Below, one piece after another: positions 45,199 to 57,386 of a DNA stretch of 64,000 bases; positions within the stretch are counted from its first letter, which is position 1; the number at the start of each line of letters is the position of its first letter. The translations under genes and the position numbers were made by a program. Source of the DNA: a bacterium (GTDB lineage Bacteria > Patescibacteriota > Microgenomatia > Levybacterales > UBA12049); NCBI GenBank assembly GCA_021777565.1, contig JAJYDJ010000001.1, positions 248,856 through 312,855 of the forward strand, read 5' to 3'. A model generated the notes under the pieces. The model worked only from the letters and a program-made list of their open reading frames with translations, was not told where the DNA came from and made no database searches.

Positions 45199-45287
45199 AG
45201 ATTTATTGTATCATGTCCTTTCTTTTTCCCATAAAAAAATCCCCGGGTGGGGATGTGTGTGGCTAAGAAAAGTCAGCAAGCGATCGC

Positions 45288-46425: not shown

Positions 46426-48154
46426 TTTTATCTACCAAGAAAGAAATAAAGGACTCCTGGGACATCTTCCCGAGGTCCTCTCCCTCGCGGGTTCGAACGG
46501 CTACTGCCTGCTCGTTTTCTTCTTTCTCTCCAATTATAGCTAAAATAGGCACCCGTTGTAAAGTGTGGGTACGTATCTTAGCCTGGAGACGCTCACTGGA
46601 GGCATCTAATTCTACCCGAATTCCCTTACTTTCAAGCATTTCTTTCACTTTTTGGGCGTACTCTGCCTGTTTGTCGGTGATAGGAAGCAGTGCCACTTGG
46701 ACTGGTGCGAGCCAGAGTGGGAGGTTACCAGCATAGTGTTCCAGAAGAATCATCATCATACGCTCCGGTGAGCCGATGATCGCGCGATGGATCATGATTG
46801 GGTGTTTCTCTTTGCCATCACTATCTGTATAGACCAGATCGAATCGTTCTGGTTGGACATAATCTATTTGAATGGTTGAAAGCTGCCACTCGCGTCCCAG
46901 TGAGTCTGTAGCGATCAAGTCCATTTTAGGTGCATAAAATGCGGCCTCCCCTGGCCCATCAAAGTACTCTATATTATTTCGCTTCATGATCTCCTCTGCC
47001 CACTTCTCTACCTTGTCCCAGATAGCTTTATCTCCCAGGTATTTCTCTGGATGTTGGGGATCTCTAGTAGAAAGACGATATTTATAGGAAAATCCCAGTG
47101 TCTGCATGACTTTTTTCGTCATCTCTAGCGCTTTATCGATCTCAGCATCGACCTGATCTTCTCGACAGAAGATATGACAATCATCCTGTGAGAATGCTCT
47201 GGTCCTGCCAAGCCCGTTTAGCTCGCCTGGTCTCTCATCTCGATACAACATAGCAAAGTCTGTCATGCGAATAGGAAGATCGCGGTAACTGTGCATTTTA
47301 CTGGCATAAATTTGGGTGTGTTGTGGACAATTCATTGGTTTGAGATACATCTCTTCCTCTGAATAGTTAGACTTCACATGGAACATGTCCTCATGGTATT
47401 TATCATAGTGGCCTGAACGTTTGAAAAGCTCAGCTTTGGCAATTTGTGGGGTCCACACTTGCTGATACCCCTCGGCCGTCTGCAACTCTTCGATGTAGTT
47501 ATTCAGTGTTCTTCTGATGAGTGCCCCACGTTGGGTATAGAGTGGTAGTCCACTTCCCACCAAATCTGAAAAAGTAAATAGATCCAGATCACGTCCAATT
47601 TTACGGTGGTCACGTTTCTTGGCCTCTTCAAGCATCGTGAGATAGTTATCTAATTCTTCTTTCTTAAAAAATGCCGTGCCATAAATGCGGGTAAGCATTT
47701 TATTCTTCTCATCTCCTCGCCAGTAGGCACCAGCAAGTTTCATGAGCTTAAAATATTTCAAATCTTCTGATGGATTATTGTCATGTCCCCCACGGCACAG
47801 ATCAGAAAAGTCTCCTGACTGATAGAATGTAATTGGCTCCCCTTTGCCGACTATTTCATCAATCAACTCAAGTTTATATGGATTGTCTGCATAGGCTTTT
47901 CGTGCTTCTTCTTCGGTGACGTCTTGTTTGGCAAATCCTTTCCAAGAAGAAACAAGTTCATGCATTTTATCCTCAATCTTTGCTAAATCACTTTCTGAGA
48001 TTTTCACGTCACCAAAGTCAAAATCATAGTAAAAGCCTTCATCGATGGCAGGGCCTATCGTGCGAAGGGTGTGTGGATACAGTTCCATCACGGCAGCAGC
48101 AAGCAAATGCGCTGCGGAATGTCTCAAATGTTGTAATTGTTCTTTATCGTTCAT
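46406..48154 (-). CDS. thrS: Threonine--tRNA ligase (short form without N-terminal TGS domain)
   Basis: Class II core with HRAIIGSPERMM (motif 3-like), zinc ligands, and anticodon-binding C-terminus. Start at MNDKEQL (ATG 48154). Confidence 0.85.
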   Translation of the reverse strand: MNDKEQLQHLRHSAAHLLAAAVMELYPHTLRTIGPAIDEGFYYDFDFGDVKISESDLAKIEDKMHELVSSWKGFAKQDVTEEEARKAYADNPYKLELIDEIVGKGEPITFYQSGDFSDLCRGGHDNNPSEDLKYFKLMKLAGAYWRGDEKNKMLTRIYGTAFFKKEELDNYLTMLEEAKKRDHRKIGRDLDLFTFSDLVGSGLPLYTQRGALIRRTLNNYIEELQTAEGYQQVWTPQIAKAELFKRSGHYDKYHEDMFHVKSNYSEEEMYLKPMNCPQHTQIYASKMHSYRDLPIRMTDFAMLYRDERPGELNGLGRTRAFSQDDCHIFCREDQVDAEIDKALEMTKKVMQTLGFSYKYRLSTRDPQHPEKYLGDKAIWDKVEKWAEEIMKRNNIEYFDGPGEAAFYAPKMDLIATDSLGREWQLSTIQIDYVQPERFDLVYTDSDGKEKHPIMIHRAIIGSPERMMMILLEHYAGNLPLWLAPVQVALLPITDKQAEYAQKVKEMLESKGIRVELDASSERLQAKIRTHTLQRVPILAIIGEKEENEQAVAVRTREGEDLGKMSQESFISFLVDKIDTKST

Positions 48155-48298
48155 ATGGTTATTATACAAAAAAAATCCCCTTTCGGGGACTGCATCTCTG
48201 ACACGACACAACCCCCAATCCTATCGGGTAGTGGTTGTGGTCAATGTCACTGCTTGGTTCATTGCAATCATTATCATACTCATATGTCTTTTTGTCAA

Positions 48299-50747: not shown

Positions 50748-51518
50748 TCAACCTGATTTGGCAGCATTGGTCTCGGAATTCACAATATCACTTCTCTGTT
50801 TGGGCTTAAATCTTCCCATCATGCCGCCTGATTTGGCCTTCTGACTTTGTGGCTGGCCAAACTGCCCCTGCATGTTTCTCTTGCCTTGTACGGCTCTCTG
50901 CCACGTGCCTGACTCACTACTGCGCTGCTGTACATCCCTGGCAAGGGATAACAAGTTACTCAGGACACTGGAAGTTGCCTTATCAGGGGTCATCCCTGGG
51001 CCTGTTGCTTGGATAAGCTCTCTTTGCAGCGAGGCATCTTTGGTTGTCGCCGCAATACGCTGAATTTCCCCAAGAATTTCCTGGCTACTTCGCTGCATTT
51101 TTTGTCTCTCTTCACCTTCAGCCTTTTTACTTGCGTTGATAAGATCTCTTGCATAATTTGGTGTCTCGATCCCCGCTTCGATATGCACTGGCTTCTTCTC
51201 TGGAACTACTCCTTTGAGTTCACCTGGATTTTTATTGAGAGAGGCCAGATCGATTGCGGTACCAGGCTGCATCTCACCTTTTTTGCCAAGCATGGGCGAT
51301 AGGTCGATGCCCGTGATATTTTCAACGGCCTGTCCAAAGCCTGTTTTGGCATGTTCTTGGACTGTTTTTCCCACACTTTTGGGCATTTCTTTCAGGATCT
51401 CAAATCCATCAGTAGTTGGACGAGGCGGTGTAGGCGTCTTTTTGGGCGGTTGGAAAGGATTTGGGCTTTTTTGCAAGACCCCGAAGGTTTGTGCGGGTTT
51501 ACCCCATGAATCGGCCAT
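50748..51518 (-). CDS. Hypothetical low-complexity protein (Pro-rich N-terminus, Gln/Lys-rich C-terminus; probably disordered)
   Basis: 256-aa ORF on the same strand as tig. PNPFQPPKKTPTPPRPT. No domain recognised. Confidence 0.4.
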   Translation of the reverse strand: MADSWGKPAQTFGVLQKSPNPFQPPKKTPTPPRPTTDGFEILKEMPKSVGKTVQEHAKTGFGQAVENITGIDLSPMLGKKGEMQPGTAIDLASLNKNPGELKGVVPEKKPVHIEAGIETPNYARDLINASKKAEGEERQKMQRSSQEILGEIQRIAATTKDASLQRELIQATGPGMTPDKATSSVLSNLLSLARDVQQRSSESGTWQRAVQGKRNMQGQFGQPQSQKAKSGGMMGRFKPKQRSDIVNSETNAAKSG

Positions 51519-51530
51519 ATATGTATCGTC

Positions 51531-52382
51531 TTAGAGATTGGCTAAGAAATCAAGCGTTTTCTGTTGGCGAAGGATTGTCGTGACCATGTAGATGTTTTTT
51601 TGGATAGCTTCTTTTTCTTCTGGTGACTTGGCAGTAGCAAGTGCTTCATCAATCTCTTTCTGTCCTACCTCAAGCTTGGCATCATTAGCAATAGCCTGGA
51701 GAATAAATTCGAGTGCGATATCTCCTCGTGCCTTCCCTTCGTATTCAGCCTTGAGTGTCTCGATGGTTTTGCCTGTGGATGCCATGTACTGATCCAAAGA
51801 AAGGCCCAATTTCTTGATCTCACCCAAAAGTTGGGACAAGAGTCTCTCTGCTTCGCCTTCGATAAGCACCTGTGGGACTTTCACGGTAACTTTTTCTAAA
51901 AGTACTTTGACGATATCTTCAAGTTTTGGTTTCTGCACTTCAGTCTGTCCTGGCTTAAGGATTTTGCCAGCGGCGGTTACTGCTTGAACATCCTTTTTGT
52001 AGTCTCCCAAGACGACTTCTGGGGTTTCACAGGTGATAGCCTCAAATTCCCAGTCCCCTTCGTCATCAAGTTTGGTCACATTGATGCGTGGGTTGATGAT
52101 TGGTTTTACTTTTTGCTCATTCACAGCCATGACATAGGCGGTTGGAAGTAGTTGTTTTAAGGTAGCTTCTCGTACTTTCTCAGGATCAAGTTTGGTCTCA
52201 ATCATTTCCTTTGGTGCTTTGCCAGCACGGAATCCTGGAAGTTTGGCAGCTTGTGCCATCTTTGCTACTTCTTCTTTGCGGACTTTTTCTACTTCTGCTT
52301 TTGGGAGTGTAATGGTGAAGACGATATCGCCGTTCTCTTCTCGCTTGACTGTTGTTGGATAGGGGCTGGTAGTTGCTGCCAT
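51531..52382 (-). CDS. tig: Trigger factor (short form: ribosome-binding + PPIase-like regions only)
   Basis: GFRAGKAPKEMIE is the trigger-factor ribosome-binding signature (GFRxGxxP). About 283 aa versus about 430 aa typical. Confidence 0.75.
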   Translation of the reverse strand: MAATTSPYPTTVKREENGDIVFTITLPKAEVEKVRKEEVAKMAQAAKLPGFRAGKAPKEMIETKLDPEKVREATLKQLLPTAYVMAVNEQKVKPIINPRINVTKLDDEGDWEFEAITCETPEVVLGDYKKDVQAVTAAGKILKPGQTEVQKPKLEDIVKVLLEKVTVKVPQVLIEGEAERLLSQLLGEIKKLGLSLDQYMASTGKTIETLKAEYEGKARGDIALEFILQAIANDAKLEVGQKEIDEALATAKSPEEKEAIQKNIYMVTTILRQQKTLDFLANL

Positions 52383-52425
52383 AGTGAGCATAGTTTAGCA
52401 GAGATTACCGTGGTGAGCAAGGCTA

Positions 52426-52511
52426 TGGTGCCGGGAAAAGGACTTGAACCTTCACGCCCTCACGGGCACATGGTCCTAAACCATGCGTGTCTACCATTTC
52501 ACCACCCCGGC
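52426..52511 (-). tRNA. tRNA-Leu (anticodon TAG)
   Basis: Reverse complement GCCGGGGTGGTGAAATGGTAGACACGCATGGTTTAGGACCATGTGCCCGTGAGGGCGTGAAGGTTCAAGTCCTTTTCCCGGCACCA. Long variable arm; anticodon loop TTTAGGA. CCA encoded. Confidence 0.85.
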
Positions 52512-52566
52512 AAATTACCTAAAGATAGGTGTAGTATAGCGTAGTTAGGCTGTGTTGGGAACTCTT

Positions 52567-53118
52567 TTACAAAGAGATTGTGAGGTTTCGTGCGTCAAAA
52601 TCGTGCTTAAAGTTCTCAATGTCTTGCATGAAGTAACTCACATGTGAGGCCCATGCTGGATTTGAGGCATAGTGATGGCCAAGTTTGTAAATGTCAGTAT
52701 CTCCCCACTGGTTAATGTATTGCTGACGAATACCTTGTGAGACCGTGTGAATACCTTCAGGATATGAGTTAAAACAGACCATGTTCGTGCCAAAGATTCC
52801 CCAACCCCAGGCATTGATACAAGGGACTGCCTGTCCAAAGTTGGATTCAACTCCAGAAATAGCCAGAACAAGATCCCATGGGAGTTGATAGGCATCAGCT
52901 TCCTGTACGAAGTTAGCAGCGTAGGGTGCAAGTGGTGAGTTACGTTTCTCCAGATACGCACGAGCAGCCTGGATACGGGTATCAGCCACGATAGTAGTCT
53001 GGGCATCGATATTGAGTATTGCGGATGAACCAGAAGCCTTTTCTTGGGCATGTGCTGCTTGCAATGGGAAAACCATCAGAATTGCGAGAAGGTAAGTTGT
53101 TGTAAGAATGTGTTTCAT
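52567..53118 (-). CDS. Secreted glucosaminidase-domain (GH73/FlgJ-like) putative peptidoglycan hydrolase, paralog A
   Basis: Signal peptide MKHILTTTYLLAILMVFPLQAAHA|QE. ISGVESNFGQ (E-S-x-x-G), then NAWGWGIFG and FNSYPEGI match the glucosaminidase-domain pattern. Start taken at ATG 53118; the ORF-track GTG at 53154 would overlap a terminator. Confidence 0.6.
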   Translation of the reverse strand: MKHILTTTYLLAILMVFPLQAAHAQEKASGSSAILNIDAQTTIVADTRIQAARAYLEKRNSPLAPYAANFVQEADAYQLPWDLVLAISGVESNFGQAVPCINAWGWGIFGTNMVCFNSYPEGIHTVSQGIRQQYINQWGDTDIYKLGHHYASNPAWASHVSYFMQDIENFKHDFDARNLTISL

Positions 53119-53152
53119 ACTCGGGTCTTTACAGACCGTATGGGTGTGAGCC

Positions 53153-53196
53153 ACAAAAAAATCCTAACGTATGCATTTGAGAGGCATACCTTAGGA
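53153..53196 (-). terminator. Rho-independent terminator between the two GH73-like paralogs
   Basis: Minus strand reads CCTAAGGTATGC-CTCTCAAAT-GCATACGTTAGG (12-bp stem, 1 mismatch) followed by ATTTTTTTG. Confidence 0.55.
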
Positions 53197-53322
53197 TCTG
53201 TTGACATAATAACAAACTATTATAGGTTTGTCAAGGGGTTAATTATAGGACGTTTGAGGCTAAAATAACCCAAAAATAGGGCAATTTTGCTTTAGTTGTT
53301 GAAATTGGAACAGCAAATGAGG

Positions 53323-53907
53323 CTATATCTGATCCATGAAGGAAGACACGTTTTGGATCCAGTTATTGGTATTGGTAGGGTTGTACACCGGGCCAATCTG
53401 CTCTGGCGTAATAAGGCCTTGAGAGACATAGTGAACACCCAGGGATTTGCTGACCGTAATGATGGCATCTTCATAGTTATCAAAGGTGACTACCTGCCCT
53501 CCATGGATGCCATATCCCCAGCAATTATGCGTGCCTGGCATTTCAGTCTTGCACAGCGTAGACTCCTGCATGCCTATGGCTACTAACAGGCGGTAATCAA
53601 GCTTATTTTTATCTGCCTCACGCACAAATACCTGAGCAAAAGGTGCCAGAGGCGAGTGATATCTTCTCAGGAAGGATTCCAATCTGAGCGTGCGCGAGTC
53701 AGTCTCCCCGACCGTCGTAGTGATAGTGTCTGCTGCCGTAGGTAAGGCCGCGTAGGCGACCTTTTTGGCGGGCGTAATATGTCCAATAAGGGGGAAAACC
53801 AGTCCTGAGCTATGCGCGTAGCCAAAATAGCCATATAACATTATGGCAGCAACAAGTAACCCTGGGGTGAAGGTGAAGAATGATAGAAGTAGAAATAACT
53901 TCTTCAT
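53323..53907 (-). CDS. Secreted/membrane-anchored glucosaminidase-domain (GH73/FlgJ-like) putative peptidoglycan hydrolase, paralog B
   Basis: N-terminal hydrophobic anchor MKKLFLLLSFFTFTPGLLVAAIMLYGYF. IGMQESTLCK, NCWGYGIHGG and FDNYEDAI parallel paralog A. Confidence 0.6.
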   Translation of the reverse strand: MKKLFLLLSFFTFTPGLLVAAIMLYGYFGYAHSSGLVFPLIGHITPAKKVAYAALPTAADTITTTVGETDSRTLRLESFLRRYHSPLAPFAQVFVREADKNKLDYRLLVAIGMQESTLCKTEMPGTHNCWGYGIHGGQVVTFDNYEDAIITVSKSLGVHYVSQGLITPEQIGPVYNPTNTNNWIQNVSSFMDQI

Positions 53908-53981
53908 GCTGTCTTTATCGTGTCACTTTGTGCGTATGGTTGTCAAGTTGAGCTCAGATTGGTACAATTGTTGTGTTGTCA

Positions 53982-54064
53982 GCCCAGATGGCGAAATGGT
54001 AGACGCGCTAGTTTCAGGTACTAGTCCTCGCAAGGGGGTGGAGGTTCGAGTCCTCTTCTGGGCA
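53982..54064 (+). tRNA. tRNA-Leu (anticodon CAG)
   Basis: GCCCAGATGGCGAAATGGTAGACGCGCTAGTTTCAGGTACTAGTCCTCGCAAGGGGGTGGAGGTTCGAGTCCTCTTCTGGGCA. Long variable arm; anticodon loop TTCAGGT. No CCA. Confidence 0.85.
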
Positions 54065-54078
54065 CAACAGAGCATCTG

Positions 54079-54825
54079 CTATTTGTCCCCTAGTGCATCG
54101 CGTAAGGTATAACGATCAGCCATAAGATACCACTTAATACGCAACAAATCGGTGAGTGACAAGATAATATCACGAGGGAAATGGACCTTGGTATGAACAT
54201 CATTTGACCAGCTGACCGGGACCTCCTTTACTGAAAACCCACGCTTGATGGCAAGCGTGATAACTTCACAATCAAAACCCCATCGATCAATGTGTGAACG
54301 TGTGAAAATTTCTTTACTTGCTTTATGAGAAAATGCTTTAAATCCACACGTGAAGTCAGAAACAGGTACACGAAGTAACACCTGAGAAAACTTCGTAAAA
54401 CTTTTTCCCAAAAATTCTCTCAACCATGGCTGATGATGCTTTATCTTGGCACCTTTGGTTTTGCGTGATCCGATCACGACATCATGGGATGACAGTAAAG
54501 GAAGGAAATCAATCAGCGTGTCCAGTGGGGTTGAAAGATCCACATCCATAAAAAGATGGTAACGTCCTTGTGCCCGGAGCATCCCTACTCTGATAGCATG
54601 GCCTTTCCCTTTATTGGCCGAATAGCCGATAATTCTGACGTGTGGGTGTTTTTTTGCAAAGGCAATGAGTTTATCTCGCGTCTTATCACTACTCCCGTCA
54701 TCAACAAAAATAATTTCAGTCGTAAATTTTTGTCGTGAAAAAAAAGTGGTAATTACGGGCAAGGTATGTAAACGCTTCTGCTCGTTATAGACAGGGATGA
54801 TGACTGATAAGTATGGCCTTTTCAT
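54079..54825 (-). CDS. GT2-family glycosyltransferase, polyprenyl-phosphate sugar synthase-like (DPM1/GtrB/ArnC-type)
   Basis: MKRPYLSVIIPVYNE...IIFVDDGSSDKT...GKGHA GT-A signature (DxD-type). Soluble, about 248 aa. Start at MKRPY (54825). Confidence 0.75.
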   Translation of the reverse strand: MKRPYLSVIIPVYNEQKRLHTLPVITTFFSRQKFTTEIIFVDDGSSDKTRDKLIAFAKKHPHVRIIGYSANKGKGHAIRVGMLRAQGRYHLFMDVDLSTPLDTLIDFLPLLSSHDVVIGSRKTKGAKIKHHQPWLREFLGKSFTKFSQVLLRVPVSDFTCGFKAFSHKASKEIFTRSHIDRWGFDCEVITLAIKRGFSVKEVPVSWSNDVHTKVHFPRDIILSLTDLLRIKWYLMADRYTLRDALGDK

Positions 54826-55559
54826 ACGGTCCGCTTTTGTGCAACGCAAAAAAGTGTCGTCCCGAACGGCACAGGAAGAATACGCATCCACACCGACTCT
54901 ATCCAAAACAAAAGTGAAAAAAGTGTATTAACCAAACTGTTGGTGTGAGAAAAATCCGAGGGATATGATTTACCTTTATATAACAATGATTTTACATATC
55001 GAACTACGTATGCAGGAATGAAAAGGAACGAATAACGATACGTCATTTCACGAATACTAAACCCATTCTTCACCAATACCTCATACAATGACTTTCTAGT
55101 ATAACGTCTCTTGTGGTGCAGCACTTCATCCCATGTGCTCCAAAGGAATGGAAAGGCAGGGACACTGAGAATGAGATATCCATTTTTCTTTAATACTCGC
55201 GCGCATTCATTAAGCGCCTGTCCCTCACTCTCTATATGTTCGAGAACATCAAGAAGCGTAATACCATCAAAGGTCTGTGCTGGGAAAGGTAAGTGCTCAG
55301 CATCCCCTTTTACTACTTGCGTCAATCCTCTTTTGTGACAGAAGCGTAATGCATCCGCGGATGGGTCTACTCCATAGGCATCCCCTATCATTGACCATTT
55401 CTGTACATTATTTCCTGTGCCACATCCCACATCCAAAATCTTTGCGTTGGGGGTAGTCACGAAGCGACGAAGATAGTCGAAAATCGTGCCTGTTTTTGCT
55501 CTATGCCACCAATGCTTTTGTTCAGTAACAAAGAGATCTTTATATAAATATCGTTCCAT
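54822..55559 (-). CDS. Class I SAM-dependent methyltransferase
   Basis: Motif I ILDVGCGTGNN and motif II/post-I FDGITLLDVLEHI. 4-nt overlap with the GT2 start. Confidence 0.75.
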   Translation of the reverse strand: MERYLYKDLFVTEQKHWWHRAKTGTIFDYLRRFVTTPNAKILDVGCGTGNNVQKWSMIGDAYGVDPSADALRFCHKRGLTQVVKGDAEHLPFPAQTFDGITLLDVLEHIESEGQALNECARVLKKNGYLILSVPAFPFLWSTWDEVLHHKRRYTRKSLYEVLVKNGFSIREMTYRYSFLFIPAYVVRYVKSLLYKGKSYPSDFSHTNSLVNTLFSLLFWIESVWMRILPVPFGTTLFCVAQKRTV

Positions 55560-55609
55560 ATACGAGGCTACATTTTATAGTATATACTAATGCTTGAGCA
55601 TACAGAAAG

Positions 55610-57214
55610 ATGAAATTTTTATATAACCCCAGGAATAGATGGATTGCTTTGCTTTTTTCCGTTATTGTCCTGCTTACCTATCGAGATGTTTGGTTTATTT
55701 ACTTCCAGCAAGATGAATGGTTCTGGTTTAAGAAAATTCTTTTATTCGATCACTACGGCATCTGGAATCACTTTCAGGTTGTGAGTAATCACTTTACTCC
55801 CCTTTTCTCCTTGCAGTTTGATCTTATGATGCGTCTTTTTGGATTTAATACTTTTTTTTATGGCCTTTATAACTTTGTTTTGCATTACATCAATACAGTT
55901 CTTGTCTTTGTCTTTGCAAAAAAGGTAACACGGAGTGAAAAGATTGGTATTATTGCCGGTGCTCTTTTTGCAGTCGCAGCGACACCGGTGGAGGCGGTTA
56001 CCTGGTATGGGACGTCTCCCATGTCTCTTCCTTCGACCACCTGTGGACTGTTCGCCTTACTGCTTTTTCATAGTTACTTACAAAAAGGACAAATAAAAAA
56101 ACTTATCCAAAGTCTTGCTCTTATCATCATCGGGAGTTTGTTTTATGAAAGTCTTATCGCCTTATTTCTTTTTCTGATTGTGTGGGCACTTATAGAAAAA
56201 CGAAATCGGAAAGATACTATTAGTTGGTCCATGCTCGTTGGTGTCCTCTTTTTTATCTTCAGGTCTCTCTTACAAGTGACACAAGGGATTACCATAAAGG
56301 TCTCCTATGCGACTTATCTGGCAACGGTTGTTCATCACCTGATAAAATTTATTCCTCTAGGATTTTCTCAACTCTTTGTCCCTACAGAGTGGGTATACCA
56401 AACCTCGCTTGCACTTATTCAATATAATCAGCCGGACATATTGCAGATGATTCCAAAAGAGTGGGATATGTATTTCAATCTTGATAATCTGATGCGCACA
56501 TTCTTTCTGTCATTTACGGTCATCATTGTCTTGAGTCTTCTTATTTACATCGCTATCCCTTTTGCCCAAAGAGAGAGAAAAAAATATATTATTCTTTTCT
56601 TTCTTTTTTGTATCATTAATTTCCTTCCCTTTTCGCTTCTGCCCCAGAGTGGACTTGAGTCTCGTCATTTTTATTTCATCACCATAGGGAGTTCTGTCAT
56701 GTTGGGAATTATTATTGAGAGATTTTTTGAGAAGATTGGGTCGCCAATCGGCAAACTTCTTATTATCTTTCTCGTGACTTATTATATGGGTTTTCAAATC
56801 CATTTTATTCGAGATGCGGTAGTTGCTCTGGGACGTGTAAGTGCCGTCAGAGCAACAATAGTTCACGATGTTGTGTCCACATACAAGACAGTGCCACCTC
56901 GTGTGATTTTCTATTCAACGACTGGGGTTCTGCCATTTCAATCAGGATTTGGAGAGACGCTTATGGTCAACTACGCATCACAACACTCATATATCCCTTT
57001 CTTTAAAACCGAATTCCTGACCCACATGGGAGAACAAGGATATCAGGAAATGGATGGTGTCGGATTTGGCTACTTTAGTGAATATGCACTCCTCAAGCAG
57101 GCATATGATGCCTATCACCTGCAGCCATCGGATGTCTATGCCTTTGCGTGGGATAATGTGAATAAAAAGCTCATTGACCAATCTGTGCAAATCAGGGCCA
57201 AGCTCTCTCAATAA
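55610..57214 (+). CDS. Polytopic membrane protein, putative GT-C-fold glycosyltransferase (GT39/GT83, PMT/ArnT-like)
   Basis: 534 aa, at least 11 predicted TM helices. Asp-Glu pair in the first extracytoplasmic loop (FQQDEWFWF) as in PMT/ArnT-type GT-C enzymes. Divergent from the GT2+MTase pair. Confidence 0.5.
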   Translation: MKFLYNPRNRWIALLFSVIVLLTYRDVWFIYFQQDEWFWFKKILLFDHYGIWNHFQVVSNHFTPLFSLQFDLMMRLFGFNTFFYGLYNFVLHYINTVLVFVFAKKVTRSEKIGIIAGALFAVAATPVEAVTWYGTSPMSLPSTTCGLFALLLFHSYLQKGQIKKLIQSLALIIIGSLFYESLIALFLFLIVWALIEKRNRKDTISWSMLVGVLFFIFRSLLQVTQGITIKVSYATYLATVVHHLIKFIPLGFSQLFVPTEWVYQTSLALIQYNQPDILQMIPKEWDMYFNLDNLMRTFFLSFTVIIVLSLLIYIAIPFAQRERKKYIILFFLFCIINFLPFSLLPQSGLESRHFYFITIGSSVMLGIIIERFFEKIGSPIGKLLIIFLVTYYMGFQIHFIRDAVVALGRVSAVRATIVHDVVSTYKTVPPRVIFYSTTGVLPFQSGFGETLMVNYASQHSYIPFFKTEFLTHMGEQGYQEMDGVGFGYFSEYALLKQAYDAYHLQPSDVYAFAWDNVNKKLIDQSVQIRAKLSQ

Positions 57215-57288: not shown

Positions 57289-57371
57289 GCGGATGTGGTG
57301 AAATGGTATACACGCTACCTTGAGGTGGTAGTGCTCGAAAGGGCGTGGAGGTTCAAGTCCTCTCATCCGCA
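57289..57371 (+). tRNA. tRNA-Leu (anticodon GAG)
   Basis: GCGGATGTGGTGAAATGGTATACACGCTACCTTGAGGTGGTAGTGCTCGAAAGGGCGTGGAGGTTCAAGTCCTCTCATCCGCA. Anticodon loop TTGAGGT; long variable arm. Confidence 0.85.
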
Positions 57372-57386
57372 CCGTTCCTTACGTAA

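Follow-up and report, generated by a model that had tools for sequence, protein, structure and literature searches.

Two GH73-like wall hydrolase genes of Levyibacteriota and a conserved leader hairpin, a candidate regulatory RNA

The locus and the products of its two genes

We analyzed a stretch of 64,000 nucleotides (nt; hereafter the window) of contig JAJYDJ010000001.1 (assembly GCA_021777565.1) from a bacterium of the Levybacterales, in which two neighbouring genes, here called A and B, appear to encode small wall hydrolases. Gene A (52567..53118, minus strand; 183 amino acids from its ATG) encodes a putative secreted GH73-like peptidoglycan hydrolase, and gene B (53323..53907, minus strand; 194 amino acids) a putative membrane-anchored paralog, as judged from the list of open reading frames (ORFs) and, for B, from an AF2 model and Foldseek searches. 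The two products are 35% identical over 162 amino acids (E 6e-22). Directly 3' of gene A lies tRNA-Leu(UAG) on the same strand (52426..52511; ARAGORN, Rfam tRNA score 53.9 bits), and on the other side of the pair lies tRNA-Leu(CAG) on the plus strand (53982..54065; ARAGORN and Rfam), the first member of a rearrangement-prone tRNA cluster. The spacer between B and A holds a promoter of A and a hairpin with a U-tract, called HP1. A prediction made earlier from the sequence alone (the original prediction) had described two adjacent minus-strand paralogs, each with a signal peptide or an anchor, between two tRNA-Leu genes, and we found all of these: the product of A has a cleavable signal peptide (MKHIL...AAHA, cleaved before QEKA) and that of B an N-terminal membrane helix.

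In the public annotation (P0001), gene A starts at an alternative in-frame GTG at 53154, which gives a 195-amino-acid form; this GTG stands right after the U-tract of HP1, and a signal-peptide-like N-terminus is read from the ATG at 53118, 36 nt downstream. In the AF2 model of B (pLDDT 87.3), a transmembrane helix (residues 2-34) is followed by a disordered linker (35-70) and the catalytic domain (71-194). Product A contains the motif series VESNFG...NAWGWGIFG...FNSY, with the putative catalytic Glu91 encoded at 52848-52846, and product B the series QESTLC...NCWGYGIHG...FDNY, with Glu115 encoded at 53565-53563. Thus the motif series that had been predicted for both proteins is present in both, but its first element in the form E-S-x-x-G is found only in A. 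The B type also has a Cys pair (ES-T-L-C...N-C-WG) that flanks the catalytic loop, and the A product of the window and its close relatives have another pair (VPC...VCF); these are probably disulfides of exported enzymes.

Relationship of A and B to GH73 enzymes

A search for relatives of A and B recovered 64 sequences, nearly all of them unnamed or "hypothetical" proteins of 170-205 amino acids from Patescibacteria or Levyibacteriota, and a family profile was built from 51 members. Two types can be recognized. The A type has a cleavable signal peptide, an EKASGSSA-like mature N-terminus and a C-terminal L-S-I-S-L, and the B type has a long N-terminal hydrophobic helix and an AYAALP motif. These conserved motifs outside the catalytic core (in A, EKASGSSA after the cleavage site and the C-terminal L-(S/P)-I-S-L; in B, AYAALP) lie in regions of low pLDDT.

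Against structures in the PDB, the 51-member profile matched the glucosaminidase Ecd09610 (8YXK) with E 2.4e-11 over profile positions 43-176, and the GH73 domain of LytB (7PJ3/4Q2W) with E 1.7e-8. When single sequences were searched, the top PDB matches (a designed kelch-like protein, 7ONH, and FixC) were spurious, and only the weak match to 8YXK was meaningful, a point that was settled by the profile search. The Glu of the first motif (E91 in A, E115 in B) is found without exception in the 51 aligned sequences of the two types and aligns with E585 of LytB, the residue that is Gln in the inactive E585Q structure 7PJ4. With the B model as query, the top Foldseek matches were LytB, Ecd09610 (8YXK), AtlE, TM0633, FlgJ and Auto, and the model superposes on solved GH73 domains in their lysozyme-like, alpha-helical fold. 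The proposal that A and B are GH73/glucosaminidase-like proteins with a catalytic Glu is therefore borne out by the family profile and the invariant Glu, and the structural comparison with FlgJ/Auto-type domains that had been suggested, made with the B model, gave the same answer.

The Pfam check was less clear. Against PF01832 (Glucosaminidase; gathering score 30.2 bits), A scored 19.9 bits (E 1.3e-3), which is below the gathering score, and B had no match in the Pfam search; at the family level, 40 of the 51 members touched PF01832 at E<=0.1, the best of them with 1.3e-6, and for a few a PF01832 call had been precomputed. Furthermore, the Tyr of the GH73 signature YAT/SD is present in at least 90% of the members (Y150 in A, Y175 in B), but the Asp is replaced, with YASNP in A (YAASP in most A-type sequences) and YNPTN in B. 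These points weigh against a GH73 assignment, and with the Asp replaced, the bond cut may be that of a glucosaminidase or that of a muramidase/lytic transglycosylase. Taking the evidence together, we consider it very likely that A and B belong to a divergent GH73-like class.

LytB of Streptococcus pneumoniae is informative about the missing carboxylate. E585 is the only acidic residue essential in LytB (PMC4633669, PMC10434722), whose short catalytic loop has no second carboxylate; the D657A substitution merely slowed the enzyme, and the equivalent mutant of AtlWM was almost fully active (PMC4633669). D657 is the Asp of the YATD motif of LytB, whose place is taken by N or S in the A subfamily and by T or N in the B subfamily, and the Tyr of the motif is retained in LytB as in A and B. 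As in LytB, no conserved second carboxylate was found in the family alignment between the Glu and the F-x-x-Y motif. Judging from the alignment, A and B most probably act as LytB does, with a single general-acid Glu and substrate assistance. However, LytB is only about 24% identical to the window proteins and is a multidomain protein with choline-binding repeats and SH3b/WW domains, whereas A and B are bare catalytic domains of about 125 residues with a signal peptide, or with a transmembrane anchor and a linker.

The best profile match, the glucosaminidase domain of Ecd09610 from a Clostridioides difficile prophage, is a compact domain of similar size, and Ecd09610 is described as a phage endolysin that also has an endopeptidase domain (PMC9405191). 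It is phage-borne and lacks a secretion signal, whereas A and B are chromosomal, syntenic core genes. In topology, B resembles SagB of Staphylococcus aureus (SagB-SpdC complex, 6U0O; rank 17 among the Foldseek matches of B, prob 0.92), which likewise has an N-terminal membrane helix and an extracytoplasmic GH73 domain; SagB has the partner SpdC, and no SpdC-like partner was identified adjoining B. SagB trims or releases nascent glycan. Compared with a textbook GH73 enzyme, A and B thus differ in being bare domains, in lacking the Asp of YATD, in their sub-threshold PF01832 scores and in forming a fixed pair of a secreted and an anchored member. We found nothing specific on glucosaminidases of Patescibacteria in the literature.

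At a threshold of E<=1e-30, an hmmsearch against 1.84 billion representative sequences gave 460 clusters (50% identity), and at E<=1e-10 it gave 2366; the best 150 clusters were all small proteins of 127-268 amino acids. A and B define a large family, with at least 460 clusters at the stricter threshold, of minimal, module-less GH73-like enzymes, which appear to be core genes of their phylum within the Candidate Phyla Radiation (CPR); most of them stand without annotation in public records, as "hypothetical protein". As ordinary enzymes, the proteins are in themselves only modestly important, although they may offer a handle on how peptidoglycan is remodelled and split in ultra-small, wall-bearing bacteria.

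The pair in related genomes

A scan of the genome collection gave more than 532 related stretches, and the best 80 of these (L001-L080), from different species-level genomes, were examined. Most are titled Levyibacteriota, Levybacteria, Microgenomates or Patescibacteria, and several third-party annotation titles are generic or mislabelled. Both genes are present in all 80 loci, and the order tRNA cluster, B, A, tRNA-Leu(UAG), trigger factor was found in 79. Wherever the contig reaches that far, A is followed by tRNA-Leu(UAG) and then by the trigger factor gene in all 80. In the exception, L058 (4662-6558), B is inverted and two tRNA-Leu genes stand between it and A, and A keeps its promoter and hairpin as well as its order with tRNA-Leu(UAG) and trigger factor. 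In another locus (L041, 4086-5920), about 1.8 kb is inserted between B and the promoter of A, and the promoter and HP1 are still attached to A.

The gene upstream of B varies, being tRNA-Leu(CAG), tRNA-Gly, tRNA-Val, tRNA-Phe or none, and this reflects one tRNA cluster (Leu-CAG, Leu-GAG, Val-UAC, Phe and Gly) that is shuffled or inverted among species. The two tRNA-Leu genes that flank the pair (52423-52511 and 53982-54070) are the only long repeat found there. They make up an inverted repeat of 89 nt with 72% complementarity, and the inversions of the tRNA cluster upstream of B in relatives could have come about through it.

The original prediction had regarded the two tRNA genes as possible marks of an insertion and the hydrolases as possible accessory effectors, and it had named universal conservation of the pair at this position, with housekeeping expression only, as the result that would tell against this; as regards position, this is what we found. 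In GC content, the pair (0.44-0.49) does not differ from its flanks, trigger factor included. No att-like direct repeats were found around the pair; a 14-nt, 86% pair inside gene B, ascribed to chance, was the sole direct repeat, and the ORF list contains no integrase- or immunity-like ORF in 52.4-54.1 kb. Accordingly, the features of a tRNA-targeted genomic island, namely variable presence, an integrase, repeats of tRNA 3' ends and deviant composition, were not observed, and the view that the tRNAs mark an insertion did not hold. A and B are probably a vertically inherited pair with a housekeeping role.

The hairpin HP1 in the leader of gene A

HP1 (53155..53199, minus strand), defined by folding, covariation and a covariance model, consists of a 5' arm (53197-53184), a 9-nt loop of the CCAAA type (53183-53175, CUCUCAAAU), a 3' arm (53174-53161) and a U-tract (53160-53155, about U7). 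Its stem has 14 layers, namely 7 base pairs, one G·G mismatch and 6 base pairs, and its folding free energy is about -16 to -19 kcal/mol. The 204-nt intergenic RNA (53119-53322) has a fold z-score of -4.3 relative to shuffled sequences. In relatives, the common form is AGAUCCUAAGGUAUGCC-UUUCCAAAU-GCAUACGUUAGGAU followed by U6-9, and the hairpin has nearly the same sequence across the B-A spacers although the flanking proteins are only 40-55% identical.

The pairing is supported by covariation. With 49 hand-anchored sequences, 92% of the alignment cells are paired and double compensatory changes occur in 6 of 14 pairs; when 94 distinct sequences were aligned with a model as guide, 99.1% of the cells were paired and double changes occurred in 6 of 13 pairs (63 cells), whereas register-shifted controls of the same 94 sequences have only 21-48% of the cells paired. 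Hardly any variation is seen in the UCCU/AGGA pairs at the base of the stem or in the G·G mismatch that follows the seventh pair. In three loci (L069, L040 and L074), the stem sequence is wholly different, yet the hairpin, the CCAA(A/C) loop and the G·G mismatch are retained. Because of the G·U pairs, the one-sided U-tract and this turnover of the stem, selection appears to act at the RNA level and not on a palindromic DNA operator.

HP1 is an element of gene A. With the covariance model, the window gives one strong match (74 bits, at HP1), and so does each related locus, in every case immediately 5' of A and also in L058. When metagenomes were scanned with the 16-mer of the promoter, about 57 further loci with B, promoter, HP1 and A were obtained. 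About half of the 16-mer matches were chance matches without a hairpin, and those with HP1 and judgeable flanks all have B upstream and A downstream; the promoter and hairpin were never seen before another gene. Among the 4227 families of Rfam 15, none gave a relevant match at E<=10 in 52300-54200, and HP1 matches none; in the whole window, only tRNAs pass the Rfam gathering score. HP1 is thus a new candidate regulatory RNA outside the described families, as far as can be judged from sequence.

The original prediction had taken this hairpin (53153-53196) for a clean Rho-independent terminator separating the two genes. A hairpin and a T-run do exist there, but they are part of a phylum-wide covarying structure at the predicted transcription start of A, which follows A when B has moved. 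HP1 lies downstream of the promoter of A, whereas a canonical terminator would precede the next promoter. With respect to the usual features of an intrinsic terminator, the stem and the U-tract are present, but the loop is 9-11 nt long, the stem has 14 layers with a conserved mismatch, and a consensus terminator scan did not pick it out. The generic terminators of this genome have GC stems of 5-7 base pairs and 4-nt loops (for example, 45254..45239 and 48191..48174), unlike HP1.

Between HP1 and the ATG of A, folding predicts a small second hairpin, GGUCU-GUAA-AGACC (53124..53137, minus strand), and inspection of the relatives found a variable second hairpin before the ATG in many loci of the main class, sometimes with a U-run of its own. 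At least 11 loci form a variant class in which HP1 lacks the U-tract and a canonical terminator (A-tract, hairpin, U8) stands 2 nt further on. From this class and the second hairpins, termination appears to be selected independently of the loop and mismatch of HP1, which would be its recognition features.

Several other interpretations of HP1 were considered and rejected. It is not a dispersed repeat or generic terminator, since there is one per locus in about 1.7 Mb, and the one further match in the window (45228-45258, 21 bits) falls on a short terminator of the ordinary kind. That HP1 acts as a palindrome or operator in the DNA is disfavoured by the G·U/U·G pairs, the one-sided U-tract and the stem turnover, and also by the arms varying while the CCTATAGT boxes of the promoter region stay constant. 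A pseudoknot of the CCAAA loop with a UGG past the U-tract was not supported, since inspection found no consistent covariation of loop variants and downstream sequence. Mimicry of tRNA-Leu, or T-box-like sensing, was suggested by UUAGGA, which HP1 shares with the anticodon loop of tRNA-Leu(UAG), but a shared 6-mer is expected by chance, and the CUN-like variation at a covarying pair is trivial, since all four bases occur at such a pair. Sequestration of a Shine-Dalgarno (SD) sequence by the 3' arm (UUAGGAU) was rejected as the principal mode of action because SD-like tetramers are at or below background and divergent HP1 copies (L040 and L074) lack AGGA. A leader peptide or upstream ORF after the U-tract coupled to A was also considered; 16 in-frame fusions and 19 upstream ORFs ending within -10 to +15 nt of the start of A were counted, which by a rough estimate is not clearly above chance, and the "TTG" starts of such ORFs are trivial because the T-run is followed by G.

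Promoters and predicted transcription start of gene A

The promoter of A (53206..53234, minus strand; found by promoter scan and in relatives) is a near-consensus sigma70-type promoter with TTGACA, a 17-nt spacer and TG-n-TATTAT. It has 11 of 12 consensus matches and an extended TG, and it is the best promoter match in 20 kb. We found it in the window and in all 79 related loci examined for it, with a nearly invariant box (CCTATAAT, 53219-53226, minus strand) in its spacer. The consensus across loci is CTTGACA-AACCTATAGTT-n5-TG-n-TATAAT, and a second CCTATAGT box usually lies about 23 nt upstream; in the window, this upstream copy of the CCTATA(A/G)T box is at 53242..53249 (minus strand), about 23 nt 5' of the spacer box, and most relatives have it. 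There are thus two direct copies of CCTATA(G/A)T, one within the spacer and the other 5' of the -35 box, conserved phylum-wide (L001-L080). It is unusual for a promoter spacer to be conserved, and this suggests an operator for a DNA-binding regulator, besides the RNA hairpin.

Leaderless mRNAs seem to be common in this genome. Among 61 ORFs of the window, 9 have a strong -10 box (TATAAT) 6-7 nt before the ATG, which is about ten-fold more than at other offsets, and there is no enrichment of SD sequences, with SD-like motifs in 7 of 57 long ORFs of the window (12%), at or below background; both observations point to frequent leaderless starts. A terminator, a -10 box and an ATG can even be packed within about 25 nt, as at 48191..48140 (minus strand). 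The gap between the -10 box of A and the beginning of HP1 (AUCCU) is 8-10 nt, that is, the leaderless -10-to-ATG spacing of this genome plus 1-3 nt. From this spacing, the A transcript is predicted to start 1-3 nt before the first paired base of HP1, with the +1 at about 53199. In 39 of 80 loci, an AUG lies within a few nt downstream of the U-tract, and in many of them A truly starts there; in between about a fifth and a third of the loci, the AUG of A stands directly after the U-tract and no other start of A is plausible. In the ancestor, the 5' untranslated region (UTR) of A may therefore have consisted of HP1 and the U-tract alone. We found nothing specific in the literature on leaderless transcription in CPR bacteria or on RNA motifs of Microgenomates.

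Gene B has a promoter-like region of its own (53917..53946, minus strand; TTGACA, an 18-nt spacer and TG-a-CACGAT; from the sequence and relatives), which ends 9 nt ahead of its ATG, so that the leader of B would be very short. In relatives, the form is CTTGACAA...TG-n-n-A-n-n-n-T, 3-10 nt before the ATG of B and without a hairpin. The claim that A and B are transcribed independently is plausible, since each gene's own promoter is conserved across relatives.

Possible functions of the enzymes and of the leader

Our preferred explanation, which we hold with moderate confidence, is that A and B are a housekeeping pair of GH73-like enzymes and that the HP1 leader controls A. By analogy with SagB, B would be anchored in the membrane through an N-terminal helix that is not cleaved, with nascent or membrane-proximal glycan as its substrate, and A, freed by signal peptidase, would work in the wall, in remodelling or in the separation of daughter cells, as LytB does. 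Transcription of A from its near-consensus promoter is predicted to produce an RNA that opens directly with HP1 followed by the U-tract. HP1 may then be a default-off, attenuator-type leader, in which most transcripts end at the U-tract to give an RNA of about 45 nt, and a putative factor reading the loop and the mismatch would set the read-through of RNA polymerase into A, a gene for a potentially self-lytic autolysin; HP1 would also terminate transcripts from B. The likeliest reading is that HP1 gates the secreted hydrolase A, either as an attenuator-type leader or as a tiny RNA. Attenuation as its actual mode is a tentative proposal, and somewhat more speculative is the wider idea that HP1 and the conserved promoter with its CCTATAGT boxes form a phylum-wide regulatory RNA system, in which a putative protein or RNA partner switches between the 45-nt RNA and read-through. 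The terminated RNA might itself be functional.

With regard to the proteins, they could have a lysozyme-like fold and still be lytic transglycosylases or muramidases, which cut the MurNAc-beta-1,4-GlcNAc bond. Both A and B have weak Pfam matches to SLT, SLT_2, MltB and MltF around the Glu-Ser motif, and the single catalytic Glu without a second carboxylate and the missing Asp of YATD (compare PMC4633669) would fit such enzymes as well. However, against the E values of 1e-8 to 1e-11 for GH73 structures, the profile gave only >=0.77 for goose-type lysozyme and MltF, the SLT models were matched by 13 of the 51 members as against the 40 for PF01832, and the Tyr of the YAT/SD motif is kept; neither an SLT or SLT_2 match above threshold nor a lytic transglycosylase (SLT/GH23-type) as the closest fold was found for A and B, and we regard this alternative as improbable. 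It is very unlikely that the pair is an accessory insertion between the tRNA genes that encodes secreted effectors against the wall of a host or competitor. Such a role would suit two exported proteins without the cell-wall-binding modules typical of autolysins, in an organism of the CPR, many members of which are episymbionts (according to record titles), and the tRNA cluster upstream of B is indeed rearranged between species. Yet the pair is adjacent and next to tRNA-Leu(UAG) and trigger factor in all loci but L058, where B alone is displaced, its composition is that of the flanks, an integrase, an att-like repeat and an immunity-like neighbour were not found, and the only variable tRNA-flanked segment in the window is a glycosylation cassette beyond tRNA-Leu(CAG). 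The effector proposal, unsupported by an immunity gene and at odds with the fixed position, was thus not upheld, although a secreted enzyme could be strictly conserved and nonetheless act on the wall of a host, which counts against a purely housekeeping role.

Two other roles of HP1 have to be weighed against control of A. HP1 could protect the 5' end of the mRNA against 5'-end-dependent RNases, with the U-tract as a ribosome-loading site for the next AUG in an organism that does not use SD sequences. This would explain why HP1 begins at the predicted +1 without a 5' overhang, and it agrees with the many leaderless genes, with the lack of SD enrichment (7 of 57 ORFs) and with the frequent AUG, often the true start of A, a few nt past the U-tract (39 of 80 loci). 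On the other hand, it leaves the conserved loop and mismatch unexplained, and it does not account for the variant class that adds a terminator where HP1 loses its U-tract or for the second terminator-like hairpin before A in many loci, so that we think it doubtful. Somewhat less likely still is that HP1 is merely the intrinsic terminator of B, its conservation being incidental, and that A is driven by read-through or another promoter. It does have a stable stem followed by U6-9 downstream of B, and other terminators of this genome likewise end in ...GGAU-U7, but it stands 3' of a promoter that is conserved base for base, with no room for another promoter before A in many loci; it stays with A in L058, where B is inverted beyond two tRNA genes; its loop and mismatch persist in L069, L040 and L074 with changed stems; and its 9-11-nt loop and 14-layer stem are unlike those of generic terminators. 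Under the attenuator, stabiliser and plain-terminator readings alike, the conserved loop implies a trans-acting partner. Control of A by attenuation is weakened by three points: the start at about 53199 (+1) and the stop at the U-tract are both predicted, a candidate factor that binds HP1 was not identified, and a paired 5'-terminal hairpin with a U-rich tract and a start codon could serve as an mRNA stabiliser or ribosome-loading site.

Structured RNAs in what are taken to be 5' UTRs of genes for wall-degrading enzymes have been described, namely the lysM-TM7, lysM-Actino, lysM-Prevotella and M23 motifs and the c-di-AMP (ydaO) riboswitches; lysM-TM7 comes from a CPR phylum (TM7), and the ligands of the orphan motifs are not known (PMC5737381). 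HP1 is similar to these RNAs in its covariation support and in its position in the 5' UTR of a wall-hydrolase gene. However, unlike them, it is a single terminator-like hairpin of 14 layers that starts at the predicted +1 and matches no Rfam family. HP1 seems too simple to form an obvious ligand pocket, and a protein or RNA partner is therefore likelier than a small molecule. In the PyrR, TRAP and LicT-RAT leaders and in lambda nut boxB, a promoter-proximal, sequence-specific hairpin is combined with an intrinsic terminator; termination is the default, and a trans-acting binder sets the read-through. The likeness of HP1 to these systems is architectural only. In its main class, the recognition hairpin would itself be the terminator and there is no room for an alternative antiterminator fold, unlike in these systems.

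To our knowledge, few regulators can be recognised in CPR bacteria, and next to nothing is known about how they control their genes. The leader, a covarying hairpin at the predicted +1 before the gene for a potentially self-lytic enzyme, therefore matters more than the proteins. If the proposal is true, HP1 would be the first gene-control RNA to be described that is specific to Levyibacteriota, and this in a genome whose transcripts are otherwise largely leaderless, and it could lead to a new RNA-binding regulator or small RNA that controls autolysis.

Neighbouring genes

The tRNA cluster upstream of B is split in the window by a 3.1-kb glycosylation cassette (54079-57214), which lies between tRNA-Leu(CAG) (53982-54065) and tRNA-Leu(GAG) (57289-57373). 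The cassette contains genes for a GT2 glycosyltransferase, an S-adenosylmethionine-dependent methyltransferase and a PMT_2/GT-C-like membrane glycosyltransferase of 534 amino acids. Its GC content (0.37-0.43) is below that of the flanks, and in many relatives the gap between the Leu(CAG) and Leu(GAG) genes is only 20-150 nt. It is this cassette, and not the hydrolase pair, that looks like the tRNA-flanked variable insert in the window. On the other side of the pair, beyond tRNA-Leu(UAG), the trigger factor gene (51531-52391, minus strand) encodes a protein of 286 amino acids with Trigger_N and Trigger_C and without a peptidyl-prolyl isomerase (FKBP) domain between them. Downstream of it, an ORF of 256 amino acids (50748-51518, minus strand) without a Pfam match encodes a Gln/Pro/Lys-rich protein, and weak homologues of this protein (23-39% identity) are encoded at the same position in a minority of the related loci.

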